Part shown: in pieces, positions 28,943-47,472 of the stretch
Layout of the letters: each line of letters opens with the position of its first letter
How positions within the stretch are numbered: the stretch's first letter is position 1
Assembly (NCBI GenBank): GCA_035765535.1
Contig: DASTXE010000005.1
Location: 36,684-100,683, forward strand
Length of the DNA: 64,000 nucleotides
From: Rickettsiales bacterium
Lineage (GTDB): Bacteria > Pseudomonadota > Alphaproteobacteria > Rickettsiales > JABCZZ01
Direction of reading: 5' to 3'
Translations under genes and position numbers: made by a program
Notes under the pieces: generated by a model
The model's database searches: none
The model's input: only the letters and a program-made list of their open reading frames with translations
What the model was told of the DNA's origin: nothing

Positions 28943-29923
28943 ATGAACCAGCAATTAATGCTTCAGATAGCGCCGCTCGCAGCCGTTTTCTGCATACTGC
29001 TCTTCCTATTGTTATGGAAAAGCGACCGTAGCAGGCGTATCGAACAACGCATTCAGCGCATGAAGAATCGTAAATCCGGTGTCGTGGTCCAAAAGCAAGT
29101 GGATGCGCTTACCTTGCGCCGCAAGACACAGGAACATTCCGTTCCCATTATCGGTGTCATCATCAGTAAATTGCCTACGCAGGCGGCGCTCAAGGCCAGA
29201 CTGGAACGCGCAGGCCTGGCTATTCCTACAGACCGTTACGTTATGGGCTCTGCGGGTGTTGTTGCGCTTTGTGTCGGTCTGTTTCTGCTGACTGGCAAGT
29301 CGGCGTTCGGCGGCATCATAGTTGGGGTGATGCTGGGCGTGGTTGTCCCGCATTTTGTTATCGGTTTTCTGGGAGGGCGCAGGATCAAAAAATTCCTGGT
29401 GCTGTTTCCGGATGCAATTGACTTCATCGTACGCGGGTTGCGATCCGGTCTGCCGGTAACGGAATCCATGAATATCGTCGGCAATGAGATGGCGGAGCCG
29501 ATCAGGAGCATATTTTCCCATATCGGAGAATCGGTAAGGCTTGGCGTGCCGCTGGACAAAGCTTTGCAGGATATGGCGCGAAAGCTCAATTCGACGGAAT
29601 TTAACTTCTTTGTTACCAGTATTATTCTTCAGCGTGAAACGGGTGGTAACCTTTCGGAAATCCTTAATAATCTTTCTGACGTATTGCGTAAGCGCCTCAT
29701 GATGCGGCTTAAAATTAAAGCGATGTCATCGGAAGCAAAAGCATCCGCCATGATTGTCGGCTCACTGCCGTTTATCGTGATTCTGGCGTTGCGGTTTGTT
29801 TCGCCGGGCTATCTCGATCCGCTTATAGATACGGCCAAGGGCAATATGATTGCACTGGGATGTGGTTTCAGCCTGGCGCTTGGAATCGGCATCATGATTA
29901 AAATGACGAAGTTCGAGATTTAA
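28943..29923 (+). CDS. tadB: Tad/Flp pilus assembly inner-membrane platform protein TadB (T2SS-F family)
   Basis: 326 aa. T2SSF-type domain (FPDAIDFIVRGLRSGLPVTESM..., LQRETGGNLSEILNNLSDVLRKR). Confidence 0.85.
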   Translation: MNQQLMLQIAPLAAVFCILLFLLLWKSDRSRRIEQRIQRMKNRKSGVVVQKQVDALTLRRKTQEHSVPIIGVIISKLPTQAALKARLERAGLAIPTDRYVMGSAGVVALCVGLFLLTGKSAFGGIIVGVMLGVVVPHFVIGFLGGRRIKKFLVLFPDAIDFIVRGLRSGLPVTESMNIVGNEMAEPIRSIFSHIGESVRLGVPLDKALQDMARKLNSTEFNFFVTSIILQRETGGNLSEILNNLSDVLRKRLMMRLKIKAMSSEAKASAMIVGSLPFIVILALRFVSPGYLDPLIDTAKGNMIALGCGFSLALGIGIMIKMTKFEI

Positions 29924-29942
29924 CAGGGGAGGGAAACAAAAA

Positions 29943-30917
29943 ATGCCGATTCTTCAGTACCTCCCCGATATTAAAGCCAATGACGTTTACATGTTTCTCA
30001 CAGGCCTGATGGGGCTTGTGGTGCTGTATATGCTTGCCACCAGCATGTTTGAGACCCAGCGCAGAGCAGCCCGTGTACGGTCACTTCACCAGCGCAGAGC
30101 GCTTCTGAAGGGGCAGCTAATGGCGCCGCGCAAACGCGGCAAGAAAAGTGGCTCCAGCTCAACCAGCGTGGATCTGATACGTCTGATTGTTGACAAGATG
30201 AACCTGATCCAGAAGTCACAGGTCGGAAAGATGACCAAAACACTTTCCAATGCCGGTTACCGCTCGAAAGATGCGATTTTTATCTATGCATTTTTCCAGC
30301 TGGTGGGACCGATTTTTGCCTTCGTAGTGGGAATTTACGATCTGGACATTAAATTTTCCGATCCGTTTGCTGACAAGACGAATTTGATGATATTGCTAGG
30401 GATGGTGCTGCTGGGGTTCAAACTGCCGCAGCTTATCGTCAGCAATGCGTTGAAGAAACGCTATCACAAGGTTCAGCAGGGGCTTTCCGACACTCTGGAT
30501 CTTATGATGATCTGCGCGGAAGCGGGATTGAGTCTCGCCGCTTCGCTCGACCGTGTGTCGCGCGAGCTTGGCATGACCTATCCCGAACTGGCTGAAGAGC
30601 TTGCTCTGACTTCGATTGAGCTCGGCTTCCTGCCGGACCGTAAGAAAGCGCTCAGTAATCTCGTGGAACGTGTTGATATTCCCGAAATACGTGGTGTGGC
30701 GGGGGTGTTGATTCAAACTGAGAAATATGGGACACCTGTTGCGCAGGCGCTACGCGTGCTGGCGGCGGAGTTCAGAACCCAGCGCATGCTGCGTGCCGAG
30801 CAGAAGGCCGCGCGCCTTCCGGCAATCATGACGGTTCCCATGATCGTTTTCATTCTGCCGACCCTGTTCGTGGTGATCTTAGCCCCGGCATTGATTAAAC
30901 TTTTTGCAACGATATAG
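29943..30917 (+). CDS. tadC: Tad/Flp pilus assembly inner-membrane platform protein TadC (T2SS-F family)
   Basis: 324 aa, with LSDTLDLMMICAEAGLSLAASLDRV, IQTEKYGTPVAQALRVLAAEFRTQR and RAEQKAARLP. Confidence 0.85.
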   Translation: MPILQYLPDIKANDVYMFLTGLMGLVVLYMLATSMFETQRRAARVRSLHQRRALLKGQLMAPRKRGKKSGSSSTSVDLIRLIVDKMNLIQKSQVGKMTKTLSNAGYRSKDAIFIYAFFQLVGPIFAFVVGIYDLDIKFSDPFADKTNLMILLGMVLLGFKLPQLIVSNALKKRYHKVQQGLSDTLDLMMICAEAGLSLAASLDRVSRELGMTYPELAEELALTSIELGFLPDRKKALSNLVERVDIPEIRGVAGVLIQTEKYGTPVAQALRVLAAEFRTQRMLRAEQKAARLPAIMTVPMIVFILPTLFVVILAPALIKLFATI

Positions 30918-30986
30918 TTGCTCTTTCCCTTTAATTATGATTATTTGCCTAACTCTACTTTTATAAAAAAAGGAACGTTACCCACT

Positions 30987-32354
30987 ATGCAAGTCACCGA
31001 AGTTAAAAATGAAGGCCTCAAGCGCGAATTTACCGTAAAGCTGGATGCCAAAACCCTTAACGAGAAGACGGAAGCCCGCCTGGAGTCGATGTCCAAGAAC
31101 ATGAAGATCGACGGATTCCGCCCCGGTCATGTGCCCATGAACGTGCTGAAGAAGCGCTATGGAAAACATGTCGCCGGCGAAGTTATGGAAGGTTCGGTGA
31201 ATGAAGCGACCCAGAACGTTCTGCGTGAAAAGAACCTGACGCCTGCCATGCAGCCCAAAGTGGAAGTCACCGCTTACGAAGAAGGCGGCGATCTGGAATT
31301 CAAGATCGATATGGAAGTGCTGCCGGAAGTGCCGGAACTGGATTTCTCCCAGATTGCACTCGATAAACTGACTTGCGATATCGATGAAAAGGAAGTCGAT
31401 GAGGCGATTGAACGTCTTGCAGAGCGTAACCAGAACTTCGTGCGTGAAAAAGAAGGCGCGAAAGCTAAAAAGGGCAACCGTGCCGTGATCGATTTCACCG
31501 GCAAGGTGGATGGTGTGGCGTTTGAAGGCGGTGCTGCAAAGAAGTTCGCGCTTGAACTCGGCAGCGGCAGCTTCATCGCGGGGTTTGAAGACCAGATTGT
31601 CGGCGCCAAGGAAGGTGACGACTTGGTTGTAAAAGTTACGTTCCCGGAAAACTACCATAAGGCCGATCTTTCCGGTAAGCCCGCTGAATTCGACGTGCAT
31701 GTGCATGAAATCCTCAAAGGCGAAAAACCGGAAGTGAATGACGAATTCGCCAAGAAATTCGGCTTCGAGAACCTCGAAGGCCTCAAGAAAGCAATCAAAG
31801 ATCAGCTGGGCGGCGACCATGAATCCATGTCGCGCGTGAAGATCAAAAAGCAATTGTTTGACGATCTGGACAAGCGCCTGACGTTCCCCGTTCCGCAAAG
31901 CATGTTCGACGCTGAATTCAAGGCGATCTGGGACAAGCTGGAACAGGCGAAGAAAGAAGGCGACGAAGCGATTTCCAGCAAGAGCGACGAAGAGCTGCGC
32001 ACCGAATACACCAAGATCGCTGAACGCCGTGTAAAGCTCGGTATTGCGCTTTCGGATATCGCTGCCAAGAATAAGCTCCAGATCACGCAGGAAGAACTTT
32101 CCCGTGCTGTGATGCAGCAGGCGAGGCAGTTCCCGGGCCAGGAACGCGCTATCTTTGATTTCTACCAGAAAAACCCGCAGTATCTGCAGGAGCTGCGTGG
32201 CCCAATCATGGAAGAAAAAGCAGTCGATCTGATTCTCGGCAAAGCCAAGGTGACCGAACGCAAGGTTTCCCAGGAAGAGCTGATGAAGGAAATCGACGAA
32301 GACGCTCCGGCTGCCGAGGAAAAGCCTAAGAAGAAAAAGGCTGCTAACTCTTAA
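30987..32354 (+). CDS. tig: Trigger factor
   Basis: Start placed at ATG 30987 (MQVTEVKNEGLKREFTV). FKBP-type segment DFTGKVDGVAFEGG. Lies upstream of clpP. Confidence 0.93.
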   Translation: MQVTEVKNEGLKREFTVKLDAKTLNEKTEARLESMSKNMKIDGFRPGHVPMNVLKKRYGKHVAGEVMEGSVNEATQNVLREKNLTPAMQPKVEVTAYEEGGDLEFKIDMEVLPEVPELDFSQIALDKLTCDIDEKEVDEAIERLAERNQNFVREKEGAKAKKGNRAVIDFTGKVDGVAFEGGAAKKFALELGSGSFIAGFEDQIVGAKEGDDLVVKVTFPENYHKADLSGKPAEFDVHVHEILKGEKPEVNDEFAKKFGFENLEGLKKAIKDQLGGDHESMSRVKIKKQLFDDLDKRLTFPVPQSMFDAEFKAIWDKLEQAKKEGDEAISSKSDEELRTEYTKIAERRVKLGIALSDIAAKNKLQITQEELSRAVMQQARQFPGQERAIFDFYQKNPQYLQELRGPIMEEKAVDLILGKAKVTERKVSQEELMKEIDEDAPAAEEKPKKKKAANS

Positions 32355-32387
32355 GCCCATCACGCATAACCTTAATATGGAAGTATT

Positions 32388-33062
32388 ATGACACAGGATA
32401 TGAAGAATATTTTTGATAAAATGATGGATGCAGGTAATGTTCCGCACATGGACCTCGTCCCGATGGTAGTGGAACAGAGCAGCCGCGGCGAACGTGCGTA
32501 TGACATTTTCTCCCGCCTGCTGAAAGAACGCATTATCTTCCTGACCGGACAGGTGCATGACGGCATGGCTTCGCTGATCGTGGCGCAGCTGCTGTTCCTT
32601 GAATCGGAAAACCCGGACAAGGAAATCTCCATGTACATCAACTCGCCGGGTGGCGTTGTGACTGCAGGTCTGTCGATCTACGACACGATGCAGTACATCA
32701 AGCCGAAGGTTTCCACGCTCTGCATCGGCCAGGCAGCTTCCATGGGCTCCCTGCTGCTCACGGCAGGTGCTACCGGTAAGCGTTTTGCTACGCCGAACGC
32801 ACGCATCATGATCCACCAGCCTTCCGGCGGGTTCCAGGGTCAGGCTTCGGATATCGAAATCCACGCCAAGGAAATCATCTCGCTGCGTCACCGTCTCAAT
32901 GAGATCTATGTGAAGCATACCAGCCAGAAGCTTTCCACCGTTGAAAAGGCAATGGATCGCGATAATTTCATGTCCGCTGAAGCGGCTAAGGATTTCGGCC
33001 TGATCGACGAAATCGTTGACAGCCGTCATCCGGAAAAAGCTGCAGCCGATAAGAAGAAATAA
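32388..33062 (+). CDS. clpP: ATP-dependent Clp protease proteolytic subunit
   Basis: 224 aa, with [20 protein letters not shown], catalytic Ser context GQAASMGS, and IMIHQPSGG. Confidence 0.96.
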
Positions 33063-33087: not shown

Positions 33088-33120
33088 AACCCCCGCTGGC
33101 CTTTGCCGCGGGGGTTTTTT
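33088..33120 (+). terminator. Intrinsic terminator after clpP
   Basis: AACCCCCGC-11 nt loop-GCGGGGGTT followed by a T-run. It overlaps the stop codon of the convergent GT-C paralog 1. Confidence 0.7.
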
Positions 33121-34765
33121 ATTGCGCAAGGCAATGATGGGCTTTCCCAATGGGTGAGAGGACTTCATTCAGAAAGTCATCTTTCTTTACAGCAACAAAA
33201 ATGACCGGATATTTGTGCATCTCTGCACCGGCGAGCGGAGTTGCGGATGCGAGGGCAGGAAATGTGGTTATCTGTTTATCAAGTGCGTTGCACTCGATCA
33301 GATGCATCATAGGGGCAGAATTGAGATAGGTGTTGACGAAGACGAGATGAGTAAAACGATTCAGGATACCTGCATTCTTTGCCTGCTCCAGCATGGCAAG
33401 GAGCATGCTATCCTTATAAATACGCATATCGCGGCGGTTATTCCAAAGCAGAGTGGTACGATAGTAAGGCATCAGAGCTGCGAGAGCGGAAATATTACGG
33501 GGGTTGCTATCCCCTAATTCCGCATACATTTGCAGGTTGGAGGGGGCGAGCATAATTGCATCCGTTCTGCCCATGACAATAAGTGAATCTGGACCGAGTG
33601 ATTGCAGATAAGCTGAGACCTGTCGCCATTCTGTCTCGGTCATACCGTATTCCGTCTGATCGTCGAAGCGGTAGATAGGATTGGCGCATTGCAGTCCTAG
33701 AGTGAAGAGCGTAAGCGCGATTATAATATTGAAAAAGCGCAAATGCCTGTTGTAATACTGCAAACCCTCGGCAAGCAGCCAGCCCATGGGTATGGCCAGC
33801 AAAGGCAGCATCCAAAGACTATGCCGGTCTCCGGCGAACGGGTAAGCGCGGCTTATCCATAAAGCTGCGGCGAAGCACAATGTTGTGCCTGCCAGTGCCA
33901 GCGTAGATTTAAGCACGGTATTCTTGCCATTGATTACGGGTATCAACGCGAGGACCAATAAGAAGATAAAAGGCCATCCCGGGAATATATAACTGATGAC
34001 GGAGATAATATAAGACGGAAGCAACGCAATCTGCTCCCAGATATTCTGCGAGGCCATTTCCTGGCGGGCTAATGCATCTACGGGCGCGAGCGCCGGTTGC
34101 CATAGCAGATAGGCACTCCAGAAAAGCATAGCAGGAATGGAATTGGCCAGCAGCCAGTTTGCTGCTTCCCTGCGGGGAATCTTTGACTGCAACATACATG
34201 ACAGTTCATATGCGAACAGGCAGAGCGCTGTGAAAATGCCTGAGAAATGCGTAAAACAGGCCAGTCCAGCGCATAGGCTATAGGCAATAAGCCATGAGGT
34301 CTTACGATTTTCGCGCCATGCCAGATAAGCATAAAATGCAGCTGTCAGCAGGCATAGGAATAAGGTGTAATTACGCACAACGTAAGACTCGACGATGCAG
34401 CCCTGGCTGAAGGTAATTAATATGGCTGCGCATATGCCGCAGAACTGGCCGCCCAGCTTTTTACCGGTTACATAATAAAGTGGGATCAGTGCTAAGCCGA
34501 ACAGCAGAGAAAAGCCGCGCGTGAATTGCACGGAGTCGCCCAGCATCTGCCAGTAATGGCGTAAGATATGGCCGAGCGGAGGATGGGTCTCCATCAGTGA
34601 GAACTGCCATACCTGTCGGAGATTCTTGCCCTGAGCGATGCCAATATGCATCAGTTCGTCTGCATGGTAATGGTAAGCGTCCACCCCATGCACGCGCAGC
34701 CAAGTACCCACTGCTACCAGCAGCGCAAGCCATAGCATTGCGGAGCGTTTACTTAAGGCATTCAT
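33119..34765 (-). CDS. GT-C fold membrane glycosyltransferase, ArnT/PMT (family 39/83)-like, paralog 1
   Basis: 548 aa. First-loop acidic motif HADELMH, then ETHPPLGHILRHYWQMLGDS..FTRGFSLLFGLALIPLYY. It has more than 10 hydrophobic segments and a C-terminal soluble domain ending in GKAHHCLAQ. Confidence 0.7.
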   Translation of the reverse strand: MNALSKRSAMLWLALLVAVGTWLRVHGVDAYHYHADELMHIGIAQGKNLRQVWQFSLMETHPPLGHILRHYWQMLGDSVQFTRGFSLLFGLALIPLYYVTGKKLGGQFCGICAAILITFSQGCIVESYVVRNYTLFLCLLTAAFYAYLAWRENRKTSWLIAYSLCAGLACFTHFSGIFTALCLFAYELSCMLQSKIPRREAANWLLANSIPAMLFWSAYLLWQPALAPVDALARQEMASQNIWEQIALLPSYIISVISYIFPGWPFIFLLVLALIPVINGKNTVLKSTLALAGTTLCFAAALWISRAYPFAGDRHSLWMLPLLAIPMGWLLAEGLQYYNRHLRFFNIIIALTLFTLGLQCANPIYRFDDQTEYGMTETEWRQVSAYLQSLGPDSLIVMGRTDAIMLAPSNLQMYAELGDSNPRNISALAALMPYYRTTLLWNNRRDMRIYKDSMLLAMLEQAKNAGILNRFTHLVFVNTYLNSAPMMHLIECNALDKQITTFPALASATPLAGAEMHKYPVIFVAVKKDDFLNEVLSPIGKAHHCLAQ

Positions 34766-36455
34766 GTGCTTTTCCGTTGGGTGCGATCACCTGCTCGAAG
34801 AACTCTTTCTTGGAAACAGTCATGAATGCTGCCGGGGCAAGCGCCTTTTCCTCATCCGAAACCGATTTCTTGAGTGTTATCTCAGGGAAATTAAAGGAGG
34901 GGAAGGAGACGATCTGCTTATCAAGCTGTTTGCAGGTAAAGAGCCATGGCAGAGGTTCATAGCCTTTGGCATAGACGTCCCACACGGTTTTCATAAAAAC
35001 AAGTTTGTCCACGCCGTTCAGCATACCCTTCTGCTGCGCTTGGTTCAACGTTGCAAGCAGGATGCCAGTGGTTTCGATTCGGCGCTCGTAAGGATGAATG
35101 ATAATATGCGTATTAGCATAAGGAATTATCACGGCAGCATTTTTATCCGTGAAAGCATCCTTGCCGAGGTAAGGGTAAGTATCGTGCAACATAACAGCGT
35201 CATCACGCGCGGCGATAATGACGGAGTGGTTGTCCAGTGTCTTCAGGTAATCCGTCATGGCCTGCCAGTTTTCCTGTTTCATCTGGTATTCGCTGGGCTC
35301 TTTTTCAAAGCGTTGTCCGGCGTTGCAGAGAATAAGACTTCCTAGCAAGATCAGTGTGGCGACAGCAATATTGCCATTGATGCGGGTTTTTTGTTCGATA
35401 TACGGGCTCAAAAGCTCGGCCCCATTGCCCATCATCCAGCCTGCAGTGACGATGATGAAGGGCATCACCCATATACCGTGGCGCGTGCCTGCGGGATAAT
35501 AATGATTGATGGCGATTAGGAACATGCCGACTTCCAGCGCGATAACGCAGATCGCCGAGAAATCTCGGAATTTTTTGTCTTCGCGAACGACCGGCAGGAA
35601 CAGTAGAAAGATTATCAGCGGTAGGAAATAAGCCGATGGCAGCACGTATAACGTAGCGGTGAGCGGATTGATCAGGGTGATCAGAATATATTTATACCAC
35701 TCATCGACATGGAAATAAGGTGAAGAAAGCACAATGCCTTTGAAAAACCAGATCAGGTAAATGCCTATGGCGATTGCGGCGAGCGTAAAGTTAAGCGCAA
35801 TCCATTGCAGTTGGCTCCTAAGCGGGCGTTTAGTAACGTAAGCATCCACGGTTTCATAAGCTGCAATAGGAAAGATGGCGAGTATGGCGGAGAAATGCGT
35901 GAGGGCTGCAAGCAGTGCATAGAATACGTAAAGCCATAGATGTTTATTCTGTCTGCTATCGCGCCATTGCACATAGTAATACAGGAACATCGTGGCGAAG
36001 AAGACGAAGATAGAGTAGTTGCGGGTGACATAGGATTCGATGATCGAGCCGTAGCTGTAGGCTGCGAGTGCTGCGGCGCACATACCTGCAAACTGGCCCT
36101 TGAGGCGGTTTCCAATGCAGTAATAGACCGGGATTGTCGCAATGCCGAAGACAAGTGACAGGCAGCGCGAGAACCAGACGGAATCATCTATCTGAAGCCA
36201 GTAATAGCGTAACAGATGGCCAAGCGGCGGATGGGTTTCATAGAGCGAGAGCACCATGAGCTGCTTCAGCGACTTTGCCTTGGCGAGCCAGATATGCAGG
36301 ATTTCATCTTCGCTATAGTAATAGACGCCAGCGCCATGCACGCGGACGTAAATAGCCAGCAGGATGAGAACTGTCAGCCAGCCCCAGATGAAAGTTTTTG
36401 AGAAAATGCGTTCGTTATTCGGCATGGATTTTGTTTCCCGGAGGCGGTTCGACAT
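34749..36455 (-). CDS. GT-C fold membrane glycosyltransferase, ArnT/PMT-like, paralog 2
   Basis: 568 aa, with SEDEILH and ETHPPLGHLLRYYWLQIDDS..FSRCLSLVFGIATIPVYY. The C-terminus is NGKAHECLK. Its stop overlaps the paralog 1 start by 17 nt. Confidence 0.7.
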   Translation of the reverse strand: MSNRLRETKSMPNNERIFSKTFIWGWLTVLILLAIYVRVHGAGVYYYSEDEILHIWLAKAKSLKQLMVLSLYETHPPLGHLLRYYWLQIDDSVWFSRCLSLVFGIATIPVYYCIGNRLKGQFAGMCAAALAAYSYGSIIESYVTRNYSIFVFFATMFLYYYVQWRDSRQNKHLWLYVFYALLAALTHFSAILAIFPIAAYETVDAYVTKRPLRSQLQWIALNFTLAAIAIGIYLIWFFKGIVLSSPYFHVDEWYKYILITLINPLTATLYVLPSAYFLPLIIFLLFLPVVREDKKFRDFSAICVIALEVGMFLIAINHYYPAGTRHGIWVMPFIIVTAGWMMGNGAELLSPYIEQKTRINGNIAVATLILLGSLILCNAGQRFEKEPSEYQMKQENWQAMTDYLKTLDNHSVIIAARDDAVMLHDTYPYLGKDAFTDKNAAVIIPYANTHIIIHPYERRIETTGILLATLNQAQQKGMLNGVDKLVFMKTVWDVYAKGYEPLPWLFTCKQLDKQIVSFPSFNFPEITLKKSVSDEEKALAPAAFMTVSKKEFFEQVIAPNGKAHECLK

Positions 36456-38097
36456 ATTGTTCCAGATAGGTGTTTTCCTTCAGGCAGTGATAGGCTTTTC
36501 CGTTTTCGGATACAACCTGTTCCAGAAAATCTTTCTTGCGGACGATGAGCAGCATCGCCGGATTGGCGAAAGCTTCCTCAGCGGTAAATGATTTCCCCGT
36601 GGGAGGGAAAGTGAATATCTGCCTGTCCAGCTCCGGACAGCCTATCAGCACCGCCTGAGGATAAGAATGCATGAAGATAAGCCTTTCCACGCCGTCCAGC
36701 ATATGCTGTTCCTCTGCCGCCTTCAGCGTAGTGAGAAGAAGATTGCGTGTGCGTAGGCGGCGGTAATACGGATTCACGATCAAAGAGGTGCTCTCGTAGG
36801 GGATTTTCAGGGCCATATCCTTGCCCGTGAAAGCGGCATCGCCTAGATAGGGATAGATATCCTTGATGCGGAACGCTTCGTCGCGTTCGGCAATAATGGC
36901 GTCATGCTCGTCCAGTGTTTCCAGGTAATATTTTACAGCGTCAAGATTTGCCTGTTTGATGCCATATTCGCTATAGTCCGTGAAACGCCGCTGCGGGCTG
37001 TAAGCTAGCAGCCCGGCTGTGAGCAGCATGATTGCCATTGTATGAGTCTTGGAGGAATATGCACTGGCAGCATCTGATATGATGAGGGCAGCGCAGGGAA
37101 TAATAAGCGGAATCAGCCATAAATCGTGCCGCGTGCCGGACGAGGAATAATGCAGCGTGACGATCATGAAGATTTTGATGCCGATGCCGCAAGCCGCCAG
37201 TGCCAGGCAGTTGCGCGTGGCCTGTGAATGTTTTCCCGCACGTAGCGCAAACAATAGAATCAGCAGATAAAGAGCGTAGGGCGAGGGCAGGAGATAATCC
37301 AGATCGTGAAACGGATAAGACAGGGCATTATAGACTGTCTGGGTAAGATCGGTTGGGAAATGGGAATAAGGCTGGGCAAGTGCCAGAGTTTTCCGCCAGG
37401 GCAGTGTAATCAACACAGCTGAAACTGCCAGCAAGGCATTGATCCCAAGCCATTGCAGCAGCTTGGATTTCTGACCCGTACGATAGAGGCGGAGCGCTTC
37501 AAGCACCGCGAGCGGTGTAAGGCTCAGTACCGCAAAGAAATGTGTGAGGCAGGCGAGCAGGCCGAATCCGCCGTATTGTAGTAACGAGCGCAAGGAAGGC
37601 TTTTCACGCCAGGAGAGCCATGCGTCAAAGCTTAAGGAGAGAAAGAGCAGGAAAACTGTGTAATTGCGAGCGATATAGGATTGGATGATGCAGCCGAAGC
37701 TGAATGTTATCAATGCGGCTGCGCAGAGGCCCGCAAACTCACCACCCAGACGGCGGCCGATCCGGTAGTATAGTGGAACGAGTGCGATGCCGAACAGCAA
37801 TGAAAATAATCTTGAAAACCATACCGTATCCGAGATTTCCTGCCAGTAATGGCGCAGGATATTGCCCAATGGCGGGTGGGCCTCATAAAGGGAAAATTGC
37901 AGTACCTGTTTCAGGGAGTCTGCACCGGCAATGGCGGTGTGGAGCAATTCGTCGTCCCCGTAAGCATATTGGTCGACACCGTGCACACGTATGAAAATGG
38001 CGATAATTATCAATATTATCAGCCATGTTCTTATAAAAACTTTGGACATTGGCGGATTATTCCAATAATTATCTGTCTGGTTTTCCATTTTGGGCAA
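36415..38097 (-). CDS. GT-C fold membrane glycosyltransferase, ArnT/PMT-like, paralog 3
   Basis: 560 aa, with GDDELLH and EAHPPLGNILRHYWQEISDT..FSRLFSLLFGIALVPLYY. The C-terminus is NGKAYHCLK plus a 20-aa tail. It overlaps the paralog 2 start. The start could instead be the internal Met at 38049 (MSKVFIRTW). Confidence 0.7.
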   Translation of the reverse strand: MPKMENQTDNYWNNPPMSKVFIRTWLIILIIIAIFIRVHGVDQYAYGDDELLHTAIAGADSLKQVLQFSLYEAHPPLGNILRHYWQEISDTVWFSRLFSLLFGIALVPLYYRIGRRLGGEFAGLCAAALITFSFGCIIQSYIARNYTVFLLFLSLSFDAWLSWREKPSLRSLLQYGGFGLLACLTHFFAVLSLTPLAVLEALRLYRTGQKSKLLQWLGINALLAVSAVLITLPWRKTLALAQPYSHFPTDLTQTVYNALSYPFHDLDYLLPSPYALYLLILLFALRAGKHSQATRNCLALAACGIGIKIFMIVTLHYSSSGTRHDLWLIPLIIPCAALIISDAASAYSSKTHTMAIMLLTAGLLAYSPQRRFTDYSEYGIKQANLDAVKYYLETLDEHDAIIAERDEAFRIKDIYPYLGDAAFTGKDMALKIPYESTSLIVNPYYRRLRTRNLLLTTLKAAEEQHMLDGVERLIFMHSYPQAVLIGCPELDRQIFTFPPTGKSFTAEEAFANPAMLLIVRKKDFLEQVVSENGKAYHCLKENTYLEQYVEPPPGNKIHAE

Positions 38098-38127: not shown

Positions 38128-39603
38128 ATGAAAAAAGCGCTGGTTATGATTATCGCCTACAATGCTGAGCGGCATATCGTCTCGGTATTGAACCGCATTC
38201 CCGATACTTTGTGGAATAATCCGGATTATCAGGCGGATGTCGTGGTGATCGACGATTGTTCGAAGGATCATACCAGTGCTGTGGCGCGCGAGTATATCTC
38301 CGGCTCCAGCCGCCCGATCCGCCTGCTGCGCAACCAGCTCAATCAGGGGTACGGTGGTAACCAGAAAGTCGGCTATACTTATGCGATCGAGAATGGTTAT
38401 GAGGCTGTTGTCATGGTGCATGGGGACGGGCAATATCCGCCGGAATTCATTCCGCAGATGCTGGAGCCGCTCATGAGAGGTGAAGCAGCTGCCGTATACG
38501 GCTCGCGTATGATCAATAAAAAAGATGCGCTTGCGGGCGGCATGCCGTATTATAAATTTGCGGGCAATATCGTTCTGACGCAGTTGCAGAACTGGATGCT
38601 TGGCAGCAATCTCAGCGAATTCCATTCCGGGTTCCGGGCTTATAGCATTGCGGCGCTGAGGCAGATTCCGTTTCAGTATAATTCCAACGTCTTCCACTTC
38701 GACACGGATATTATCATCCAGTTGGTGGATAATGGGCTTACCATTAAGGAAATCCCTATTCCGACGCATTACGGGGATGAAGTCTGCCATGTGAACGGTC
38801 TGCGTTATGCTAAGGATGTCATGGTTTCGACGCTGCTTTCGCGTATCCAGAAGTTTGGCATCTTTTACGATCCCAAGTTCGACTATGAGCGCACAGTCAC
38901 CTATCCCGATAAAAGCCAGTTTGCCAGCAGCCATAGTTTTGCGCTGGAACAGGTCAATGCCAATGAAACCGTGCTTGATCTTGGCTGCGAGGCGTATGTT
39001 ACGGGCAACCTGAAAACGCGCGGATGCAAGGTAATCGGCTGCGACTGGCAGGTGAACGACCGTATGCGCGAAGCTTATGAAGGCGTATTCGCAATGGACC
39101 TGAACCAGCCTGATTTCGATGTGCTAGGCCAGCAGCATTTCGATGTGATTATGCTCCTCGATGTGATTGAACATATCAGCGACCCGGAAGCGTTCATGGA
39201 AAGGCTGCATAGGCGGTTCGCGGCGATGAACCCGCGTATTGTCGTGACGACGCCGAACATTGCTTTCTTTATCCAGCGCATCATGCTGCTGCTTGGCCAG
39301 TTCAATTACGGCAAGCGCGGTATTCTTAACCGGAAGCATACACGCCTCTTTACGTTTGCATCCCTTTCGCGCCTGCTCAGCAATTCCGGTTTCAATGTGA
39401 TAAAACTGGAAGGCATTCCCGCGCCGTTCCCGCTTGCTTTCGGCGATAACGGGTTCGCACGTGCGCTATTGAAATTTAATCAATCGCTGATGAAAATCAG
39501 CAGGACGCTGTTTTCCTACCAGATTGCGGCAGTGATACAACCCAAGCCGACGCTCGAGATTCTCGTCAGCCAGGCTATTGAATATGGTGACCGGACGATA
39601 TGA
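38128..39603 (+). CDS. Bifunctional-looking GT2 glycosyltransferase (polyprenyl-phosphate glycosyltransferase-like) fused to a class I SAM methyltransferase-like domain
   Basis: Start placed at ATG 38128 (MKKALVMIIAYNAERHI). The GT2 part has VVVIDDCSKDHT and VHGDGQYPPEFIP. The C-terminal part has VLDLGCEAY..., FDVIMLLDVIEHISDPEAF and IVVTTPN. Its stop overlaps the valS ATG (ATGA at 39600-39603). Confidence 0.7.
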   Translation: MKKALVMIIAYNAERHIVSVLNRIPDTLWNNPDYQADVVVIDDCSKDHTSAVAREYISGSSRPIRLLRNQLNQGYGGNQKVGYTYAIENGYEAVVMVHGDGQYPPEFIPQMLEPLMRGEAAAVYGSRMINKKDALAGGMPYYKFAGNIVLTQLQNWMLGSNLSEFHSGFRAYSIAALRQIPFQYNSNVFHFDTDIIIQLVDNGLTIKEIPIPTHYGDEVCHVNGLRYAKDVMVSTLLSRIQKFGIFYDPKFDYERTVTYPDKSQFASSHSFALEQVNANETVLDLGCEAYVTGNLKTRGCKVIGCDWQVNDRMREAYEGVFAMDLNQPDFDVLGQQHFDVIMLLDVIEHISDPEAFMERLHRRFAAMNPRIVVTTPNIAFFIQRIMLLLGQFNYGKRGILNRKHTRLFTFASLSRLLSNSGFNVIKLEGIPAPFPLAFGDNGFARALLKFNQSLMKISRTLFSYQIAAVIQPKPTLEILVSQAIEYGDRTI

Positions 39604-45362: not shown

Positions 45363-45437
45363 GGCTCGGTAGCTCAGTGGTAGAGCAGGGGAATCATAAT
45401 CCCTTGGTCGGGTGTTCAAATCACCCCCGAGCCACCA
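45363..45437 (+). tRNA. tRNA with CAT anticodon (elongator Met, or Ile2 if lysidine-modified)
   Basis: 75-nt cloverleaf folded by hand: acceptor GGCTCGG/CCGAGCC, D arm GCTC..GAGC, anticodon stem GGGGA/TCCCT with loop ATCATAA, T arm GGGTG-TTCAAAT-CACCC, encoded CCA. The G1-C72 pair argues against an initiator. Confidence 0.9.
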
Positions 45438-47396: not shown

Positions 47397-47472
47397 TGGT
47401 GGGCGATCGCAGAATCGAACTGCGGACAGGCTGATTAAGAGTCAGCTGCTCTACCAACTGAGCTAATCGCCC
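47397..47472 (-). tRNA. tRNA-Lys (CTT)
   Basis: 76-nt cloverleaf on the minus strand: GGGCGAT..ATCGCCC acceptor, anticodon stem GCTGA/TCAGC with loop CTCTTAA, T arm CGCAG-TTCGATT-CTGCG, encoded CCA. Confidence 0.92.

Follow-up and report, generated by a model that had tools for sequence, protein, structure and literature searches.

In this study, three regions on the minus strand of a 64,000-nucleotide stretch of DNA (the window) from contig DASTXE010000005.1 of a Rickettsiales bacterium were analysed. The regions, 33119..33673, 34749..35303 and 36415..36996, were found to encode the C-terminal domains of three paralogous glycosyltransferases of the GT-C fold class, designated W1, W2 and W3. 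The domain, about 185 amino acids (aa) long, is real, rare and unannotated; what is new is the tail, whereas the enzyme that bears it is of a familiar type and no new kind of system is involved. We consider it probable that the three regions are the family-specific, periplasmic alpha/beta C-terminal domain of a tandemly triplicated 11-helix GT-C enzyme, working by the mechanism proposed below.

W1, W2 and W3 are encoded by three head-to-tail open reading frames (ORFs) on the minus strand, spanning 33119-38097. W1 (33119..34765) has 548 aa and 11 predicted transmembrane (TM) helices; W2 (34749..36455) has 568 aa counted from the first ATG, and W3 (36415..38097) has 560 aa counted from a TTG. 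All three are full GT-C glycosyltransferases. In the gene call of an identical public contig, W2 has 558 aa and W3 has 544 aa, with an ATG start at 38049. W2 and W1 overlap by 17 nt, and W3 also overlaps W2; because the ORFs overlap by few codons, the three genes are probably co-transcribed. Pairwise identity among the full-length proteins was 34-41%. The public Logan contig L001 was identical to the window across the locus, and an NCBI protein of 548 aa, HEU5047748.1 ('glycosyltransferase family 39 protein [Rickettsiales bacterium]'), shares the length of W1 and its 90%-identity cluster.

Each paralog ends, after the last TM helix, in an alignable domain comprising residues 365-548 of W1, 385-568 of W2 and 368-560 of W3, each followed by the stop codon. 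An earlier note on this DNA had described these regions as a conserved, probably periplasmic soluble domain with two invariant Cys residues and of no recognised family, and this description was borne out: the ranges correspond to the last 184-193 codons of each ORF, and its other elements agree with the results given below. The motifs quoted there were also present, namely RF..(x)EY at the start, CNALDKQITTFP in W1, CKQLDKQIVSFP in W2 and CPELDRQIFTFP in W3 internally, and KK(D/E)F..(E/Q)V...GKA(H/Y)xCL at the end. Two small deviations were observed, one extra D in W1 (KKDDF) and L in place of W in the first motif of W3. In W3 the Cys pair is followed by a non-conserved tail of about 20 aa. 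The three domains are 33-48% identical to one another, well above what chance would give.

A profile search with the three paralogs detected 21 further full-length homologues carrying the domain. When 1.84 billion cluster representatives were searched exhaustively by HMMER with a 23-sequence profile of the domain alone, 94 matched at E<=1e-3, and in the species-genome collection the only matches were uncultured Rickettsiales metagenome-assembled genomes (MAGs). Nearly all of the domain-bearing proteins were 530-600 aa long, with the domain at the extreme C-terminus. Possible standalone copies were rejected as fragmentary gene calls, every short match beginning inside TM10-TM11, and a 3711-aa match (P0120), of repetitive sequence and hit 28 times, each time weakly and in part, was dismissed as spurious. 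The survey of co-occurrence thus placed the domain only at the C-terminus of a GT-C core; it was never found alone or on another scaffold. A word-indexed search with the 184-aa domain of W1 gave no match although a 100% identical protein (P0001) was present in the database, so that this negative reflects the sensitivity of the method and not absence.

The Cys pair is the most conserved feature of the domain, which overall is only about 37% identical per column. In the alignment of full-length members, the first Cys (C492 in W1) was present in 78 of 78 and the second (C545) in 76 of 78; in an 80-sequence alignment, 77 members had exactly two Cys residues within the domain. The corresponding codons, all on the minus strand, are 33290-33292 and 33131-33133 in W1, 34932-34934 (C508) and 34758-34760 (C566) in W2, and 36637-36639 (C487) and 36484-36486 (C538) in W3. 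Other near-invariant positions were R366, F367, E372 and Y373, just past the last TM helix, together with N412/Y414, F476, L489, K497 and G540. Since the two Cys residues are invariant and the only two of a domain predicted to be periplasmic, we infer that the best reading is a structural disulfide between them. The earlier note had raised the same possibility; invariance, number and compartment fit it, and the bond itself stays an inference. Literature searches returned no description of the enzyme family or of the Cys pair.

The AlphaFold2 (AF2) model of the domain alone had a pLDDT (predicted local distance difference test) of 92.1 and a pTM (predicted template modelling score) of 0.90. It displayed a soluble alpha/beta fold of b-a-b-type order, in which helices alternate with six strands. 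Helix 4 precedes the first Cys, and the second lies in a short C-terminal helix after helix 6. Searches for relatives of the domain were negative by every route used. Pfam gave nothing consistent on 23 domain sequences, only scattered single matches at E>=0.025, the domain profile reached a best E of 0.27 against PDB sequences, and in NCBIfam, which was scanned with the full-length proteins only, no model covered the residues of the domain. Foldseek with the isolated domain gave a best E of 0.057 and TM-scores of 0.24-0.34 against PDB, with ArnT, PglB and AglB outside the top 50, and a best E of 0.011 against BFVD. The matches in both databases were generic Rossmann-like alpha/beta proteins (TM-scores 0.2-0.34) and were dismissed as noise.

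Comparison with another PMT_2 subfamily was made with hhalign. The two families aligned over the N-terminal core only (residues 11-236, probability 97.8%), and the domain matched the approximately 150-aa tail of that subfamily with a probability of 0.4%. Other GT-C matches of the PMT_2 family, from unrelated subfamilies (P0023-P0037, about 520-530 aa), also carry soluble tails of about 150 aa after a last TM helix at approximately residue 370. These tails very often contain exactly two Cys residues, arranged otherwise than in W1-W3, as CC near the C-terminus, as C-x5-C, or as C-x9-C at the end. Bacterial GT-C enzymes may thus quite generally possess periplasmic tails stabilised by a disulfide, a feature that has gone largely unremarked.

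The membrane part of the proteins was identified as a GT-C core. In Pfam, W1-W3 matched PMT, PMT_2 and TMEM260, weakly and within residues 60-245 approximately. W3 scored above the gathering cutoff for PMT (PF02366; 34.2 versus 22.7 bits) and W2 for PMT_2 (PF13231; 27.7 versus 26.1), and W1 was below threshold for every Pfam model (23.8 for PMT_2). In NCBIfam, the full-length proteins gave sub-threshold matches to Agl23 and archaeal STT3 in the N-terminal part only, the latter at about 18-20 bits against a cutoff of 450. Searching solved structures by sequence with the full-length proteins, or even with the family profile, gave nothing meaningful, and no solved PMT was among the results. An AF2 model of full-length W1, built from the 23-sequence family alignment, had a pLDDT of 89.9 and a pTM of 0.89. 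Foldseek with this model against PDB returned 32 matches at E<=1e-3, every one of them a GT-C enzyme. STT3, PglB and AglB were at the top (E about 1e-6, query-normalised TM-score, TMq, 0.5-0.56), and Pmt4, ArnT (5EZM, E=5e-5), ALG12, ALG9 and DPY19 were also found.

Outer loop 1 (residues 25-82) contained the acidic residues expected of such a core, with D36 present in 76 of 78 members and E37 in 70 of 78 (D36-E37 of W1 = 34655-34660, minus strand). E59, H61, P62 and P63 of the same loop were near-invariant and form the motif E-x-HPPLG. By fold and acidic loop, W1-W3 are GT-C glycosyltransferases with a PMT/ArnT-like core. Modules and signatures of the known families were sought as well. No match to PMT_4TMC (PF16192) or MIR was found at E<=1 in Pfam, W1-W3 matched no ArnT model in NCBIfam or Pfam, and the WWDYG motif, searched as WWD[YWFN]G, occurred in none of the 80 family members.

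Topology was derived from the AF2 helices combined with family-averaged hydropathy and charge analysis. Eleven TM helices were assigned, at residues 8-24, 83-99, 109-122, 133-145, 160-172, 176-186, 204-221, 249-277, 288-304, 319-335 and 346-359, the helix at 249-277 being kinked at a conserved Pro. With the N-terminus inside, Lys plus Arg made up 19.5% of the predicted cytoplasmic loops versus 6.0% of the predicted periplasmic loops (80 sequences). Because of the helix parity and this strong positive-inside bias, the C-terminal domain is predicted to lie in the periplasm. Nearly all of the near-invariant residues fell on the predicted outer side, the same side as the domain: D36, E37, E59, H61, P62, P63, R131, Y133, H173, F174, Y308, R314, W318, R366, F367, E372 and Y373.

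Divergently oriented from W3 is a gene of 491 aa on the plus strand (38128..39603) that encodes a fusion of a family 2 glycosyltransferase (GT2) with a methyltransferase. The N-terminal part resembles polyprenyl-phosphate-hexose synthases (AglJ, DPM1/dolichyl-phosphate hexose transferase, PgfS, PpgS and ArnC; E=1e-6 for ArnC), and the C-terminal part is a class I S-adenosylmethionine-dependent methyltransferase domain. From these similarities the protein is presumed to be the maker of a lipid-linked sugar donor. An orthologue, 72-75% identical, stands divergently beside one GT-C gene in the related locus L007 and beside two in each of L008, L009 and L002. The MAG of L002 has a third copy on a separate contig. 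Beside the fusion gene, the number of tandem GT-C copies ranges from 1 to 3 across related genomes, the window having three. In L004 a 47% homologue of the fusion lies downstream of a more distant GT-C gene on the same strand. The adjoining GT2 gene in the window and in these five related loci suggests that W1-W3 use a lipid-phosphate-linked sugar as donor. Motif I of the methyltransferase (residues 283-292 approximately) reads LDLGC-EAYV in the window versus LDIGCGEGYV in the orthologues of L007, L008 and L009; in the window the glycine-rich loop has lost one residue and shows a G-to-A substitution. Judged by this motif, the methyltransferase half may be impaired in the genome of the window.

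In the mechanism that we propose, the GT2-methyltransferase fusion would load a hexose, possibly methylated, onto polyprenyl phosphate at the cytoplasmic face, and the lipid-linked sugar would be flipped across the membrane. Each GT-C paralog would move the sugar to a periplasmic acceptor, for which an envelope glycolipid, lipopolysaccharide or a protein are candidates. The active site would lie on the outer face and consist of the invariant Asp-Glu and the E-x-HPPLG motif of outer loop 1, plus conserved residues of other outer loops. The C-terminal domain would start at this face with the conserved R-F-x4-E-Y, and its shape would be held by a disulfide formed between the invariant Cys residues in the oxidising periplasm. 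Because the conserved start of the domain continues from the active-site face, the domain is proposed to help in forming or covering the pocket for the acceptor and the donor headgroup, a part also played by the periplasmic domains of ArnT and PglB.

Several explanations of the domain were weighed. It is quite possible, if short of probable, that the domain is no new module but is homologous, though strongly diverged, to the standard periplasmic C-terminal domain of ArnT/PglB-type or PMT_2-type GT-C enzymes and has acquired a lineage-specific disulfide. Its position directly after the last TM helix, its compartment, its similar size and its alpha/beta class all agree with this; the full-length Foldseek alignments to PglB/STT3 cover about 580-600 columns, roughly the whole query; and other PMT_2 proteins bear the tails of about 150 aa noted above, often with two Cys residues in other patterns. 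The best local hhalign match, itself insignificant, fell on the equivalent first helix and strand. Against common descent of this kind, the isolated domain found no significant structural match in PDB, its alignment to the PMT_2 tail was assigned a probability of 0.4%, and the sequence-profile searches of Pfam and PDB were empty. That the invariant Cys residues, instead of forming a disulfide, bind a metal or work as a catalytic or redox pair is quite improbable. Absolute invariance is typical of functional residues too, and in many members a His stands one or two residues ahead of the second Cys (GKAHxCL), but elsewhere in the family R, N, Y, S, A or Q takes the place of this His, and with only two Cys residues there is no conserved third or fourth ligand. 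Moreover, catalysis by GT-C enzymes relies on acidic residues of loop 1, which are intact in the family, and free thiols are unusual in an oxidising periplasm.

A cytoplasmic domain with reduced Cys residues would follow if the 29-residue hydrophobic stretch 249-277 were a helical hairpin and not a single kinked helix, and AF2 indeed splits it into helices 249-260 and 265-279 around the conserved Pro. We regard this as very improbable, since half-helices of 12 and 15 residues are too short to span the bilayer; in addition, three loops rich in K/R (278-287, 336-345 and the rest by parity) would then face out, and the conserved R314/W318 loop and the R366-Y373 motif would lie across the membrane from the catalytic DE loop. 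To our knowledge, wherever a characterised GT-C enzyme has a C-terminal domain, that domain is extracytoplasmic, which also counts against a cytoplasmic placement. In Mycobacterium tuberculosis PMT the C-terminus is periplasmic (PMC12331936). A bolder proposal is that the tail has a genuinely new periplasmic fold, stapled by a disulfide, and recognises the acceptor in an undescribed envelope glycosylation system restricted to Rickettsiales-like alphaproteobacteria. One GT2-methyltransferase fusion would there supply a (methyl-)hexose lipid donor, and as many as three transferases of ancient divergence would decorate three different surface sites; this appears rather unlikely.

The reading of the three regions as a family-specific periplasmic domain acting with a lipid-linked donor also has points that weigh against it. 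The distant single-copy members L005, L006 and L010 are without an adjoining GT2 gene, no flippase gene is adjacent to the locus, and the altered motif I (GC-EA versus GCGEG) makes methylation of the donor doubtful in the genome of the window. The topology is a prediction from our own hydropathy and charge analysis of the AF2 helices, in place of a dedicated predictor or experimental mapping, and the case for the disulfide is made up of invariance, number and compartment. Finally, another region of the proteins diverges more between paralogs than the C-terminal domain does, so that a mainly structural role for the domain is as compatible with the data as one in specificity.

The last point bears on acceptor specificity, which the earlier note had assigned most likely to the C-terminal domain. 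Between paralogs, identity was 46-49% in the N-terminal core (residues 1-200) and 33-48% in the C-terminal domain, and only 19-27% in residues 201-362, a variable TM module that includes outer loop 4. Because residues 201-362 diverge more than the tail, that assignment was not specifically supported. In M. tuberculosis PMT, the acceptor is recognised by a hairpin in outer loop 4 (PMC12331936). W1, W2 and W3 fell into separate clades, W1 with P0002, P0004 and P0006, W2 with the first genes of L008 and L009, and W3 with P0039. Because each of these three clades holds orthologues from other genomes, the genes appear to be old duplicates that have been retained. This is compatible with different acceptors or positions, which the earlier note had read from the threefold divergence.

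The locus is flanked by tig, clpP, valS and fur, and L009 shares the valS-fur neighbours of the window. A 683-aa ORF antisense to tig and clpP (30978-33029, minus strand) is almost certainly no gene, only a shadow ORF without coding function. Directly upstream of the ORFs read as tig (30918-32354) and clpP (32388-33062) are two neighbouring ORFs of 326 and 324 aa on the plus strand (28943-30917), each with several hydrophobic stretches, which from their sequences look like TadB/TadC-type pilus platform proteins. Glycosylation of pilin was considered and set aside, no link between these tad genes and the GT-C genes being evident; tig and clpP lie between them, and of the neighbours in the window valS, fur and the GT2-methyltransferase gene recur in the related loci but tad does not. 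In two of the loci without a GT2 gene, other neighbours were observed. In L006 (6265-9656) only 8 bp separate the GT-C gene from an AsmA-family gene upstream of it, and in L005 (1858-4327) the GT-C gene is just downstream of a gene for an outer-membrane beta-barrel protein of the Surface_Ag_2 type; these neighbours are hints of a role related to the outer membrane. The only Rfam matches at the gathering threshold in the window were two tRNA genes, at 45363-45434 (plus strand) and 47400-47472 (minus strand).

If the preferred reading is true, the domain adds one more unannotated periplasmic module to the GT-C enzymes, and it marks a small surface-glycosylation locus, with one to three transferases for each donor synthase, in uncultured Rickettsiales-like bacteria about whose envelope chemistry almost nothing has been learned. 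A simple way into experiments is offered by the invariant Cys pair, whose redox state can be followed and whose members can be changed to Ser. Registering the domain as a new family of the Pfam type would improve on the present annotations, which say no more than 'glycosyltransferase family 39' or 'hypothetical protein'. The understanding of GT-C enzymes is left unchanged, family-specific periplasmic C-terminal domains being an already known theme.

Comparison with known systems places W1-W3 closest to several families in different respects; the mechanism proposed for them is that of a GT-C enzyme of PMT/ArnT/Gtr* type, following the known logic of extracytoplasmic glycosylation. PMTs (GT39, including Rv1002c of M. 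tuberculosis), for whose Pfam models PMT and PMT_2 the three proteins are borderline, share the GT-C fold, a chain that begins inside, crosses the membrane in 11 TM helices and ends outside, and a polyprenyl-phosphate-hexose donor made by a DPM1-like GT2, which for W1-W3 is predicted from context. A further resemblance to PMTs is the catalytic Asp-Glu with which outer loop 1 begins, together with the HPPLG-type motif after it. PMTs differ in having a PMT_4TMC module, and MIR in the eukaryotic members, whereas W1-W3 end in the soluble 185-aa domain; we know of no PMT with a C-terminal soluble domain of about 185 aa. ArnT (GT83), with related GT-C enzymes that modify lipid A or core, is similar in having a membrane GT-C core with a periplasmic alpha/beta C-terminal domain, the placement and fold class predicted for W1-W3, and an ArnC-like GT2 partner. 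Unlike W1-W3, ArnT has 13 TM helices instead of 11 and belongs to the arn operon, the other genes of which are absent here, and the Cys pair is not a described feature of ArnT. STT3, PglB and AglB are the best overall structural matches and likewise combine a membrane core with an extracytoplasmic C-terminal domain, which in these enzymes binds the acceptor. They are distinguished by the WWDYG motif, 13 TM helices and a much larger C-terminal domain, and the STT3-type donor is a pyrophosphate-linked oligosaccharide, whereas the context of W1-W3 points to a monosaccharide-phosphate-lipid.

In genetic arrangement, the locus resembles RgtA/B/C/D-RgtE of Rhizobium, in which several GT-C paralogs draw on one lipid-linked donor; here, too, several paralogous transferases stand beside one donor synthase. 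It also resembles the GtrA/GtrB/Gtr* and GT136 systems, in which a GT2 charges polyprenyl phosphate and a GT-C enzyme transfers the sugar outside the cytoplasm. The pattern of a varying transferase with a conserved synthase is Gtr-like, the GT2-methyltransferase being 72-75% identical and the W1 orthologues of L008 and L009 43-49%. In contrast to Gtr systems, no GtrA-like flippase gene is adjacent here, the GT2 is fused to a methyltransferase, and the locus has no O-antigen or prophage context. In three-component periplasmic glycosylation systems, the GT-C enzyme is commonly extended past TM11 by an additional periplasmic domain, as in GT136 (Kelly et al. 2024, PMC11127046). The GT136 domain is beta-rich, and that of W1-W3 is predicted to be alpha/beta with a Cys pair.

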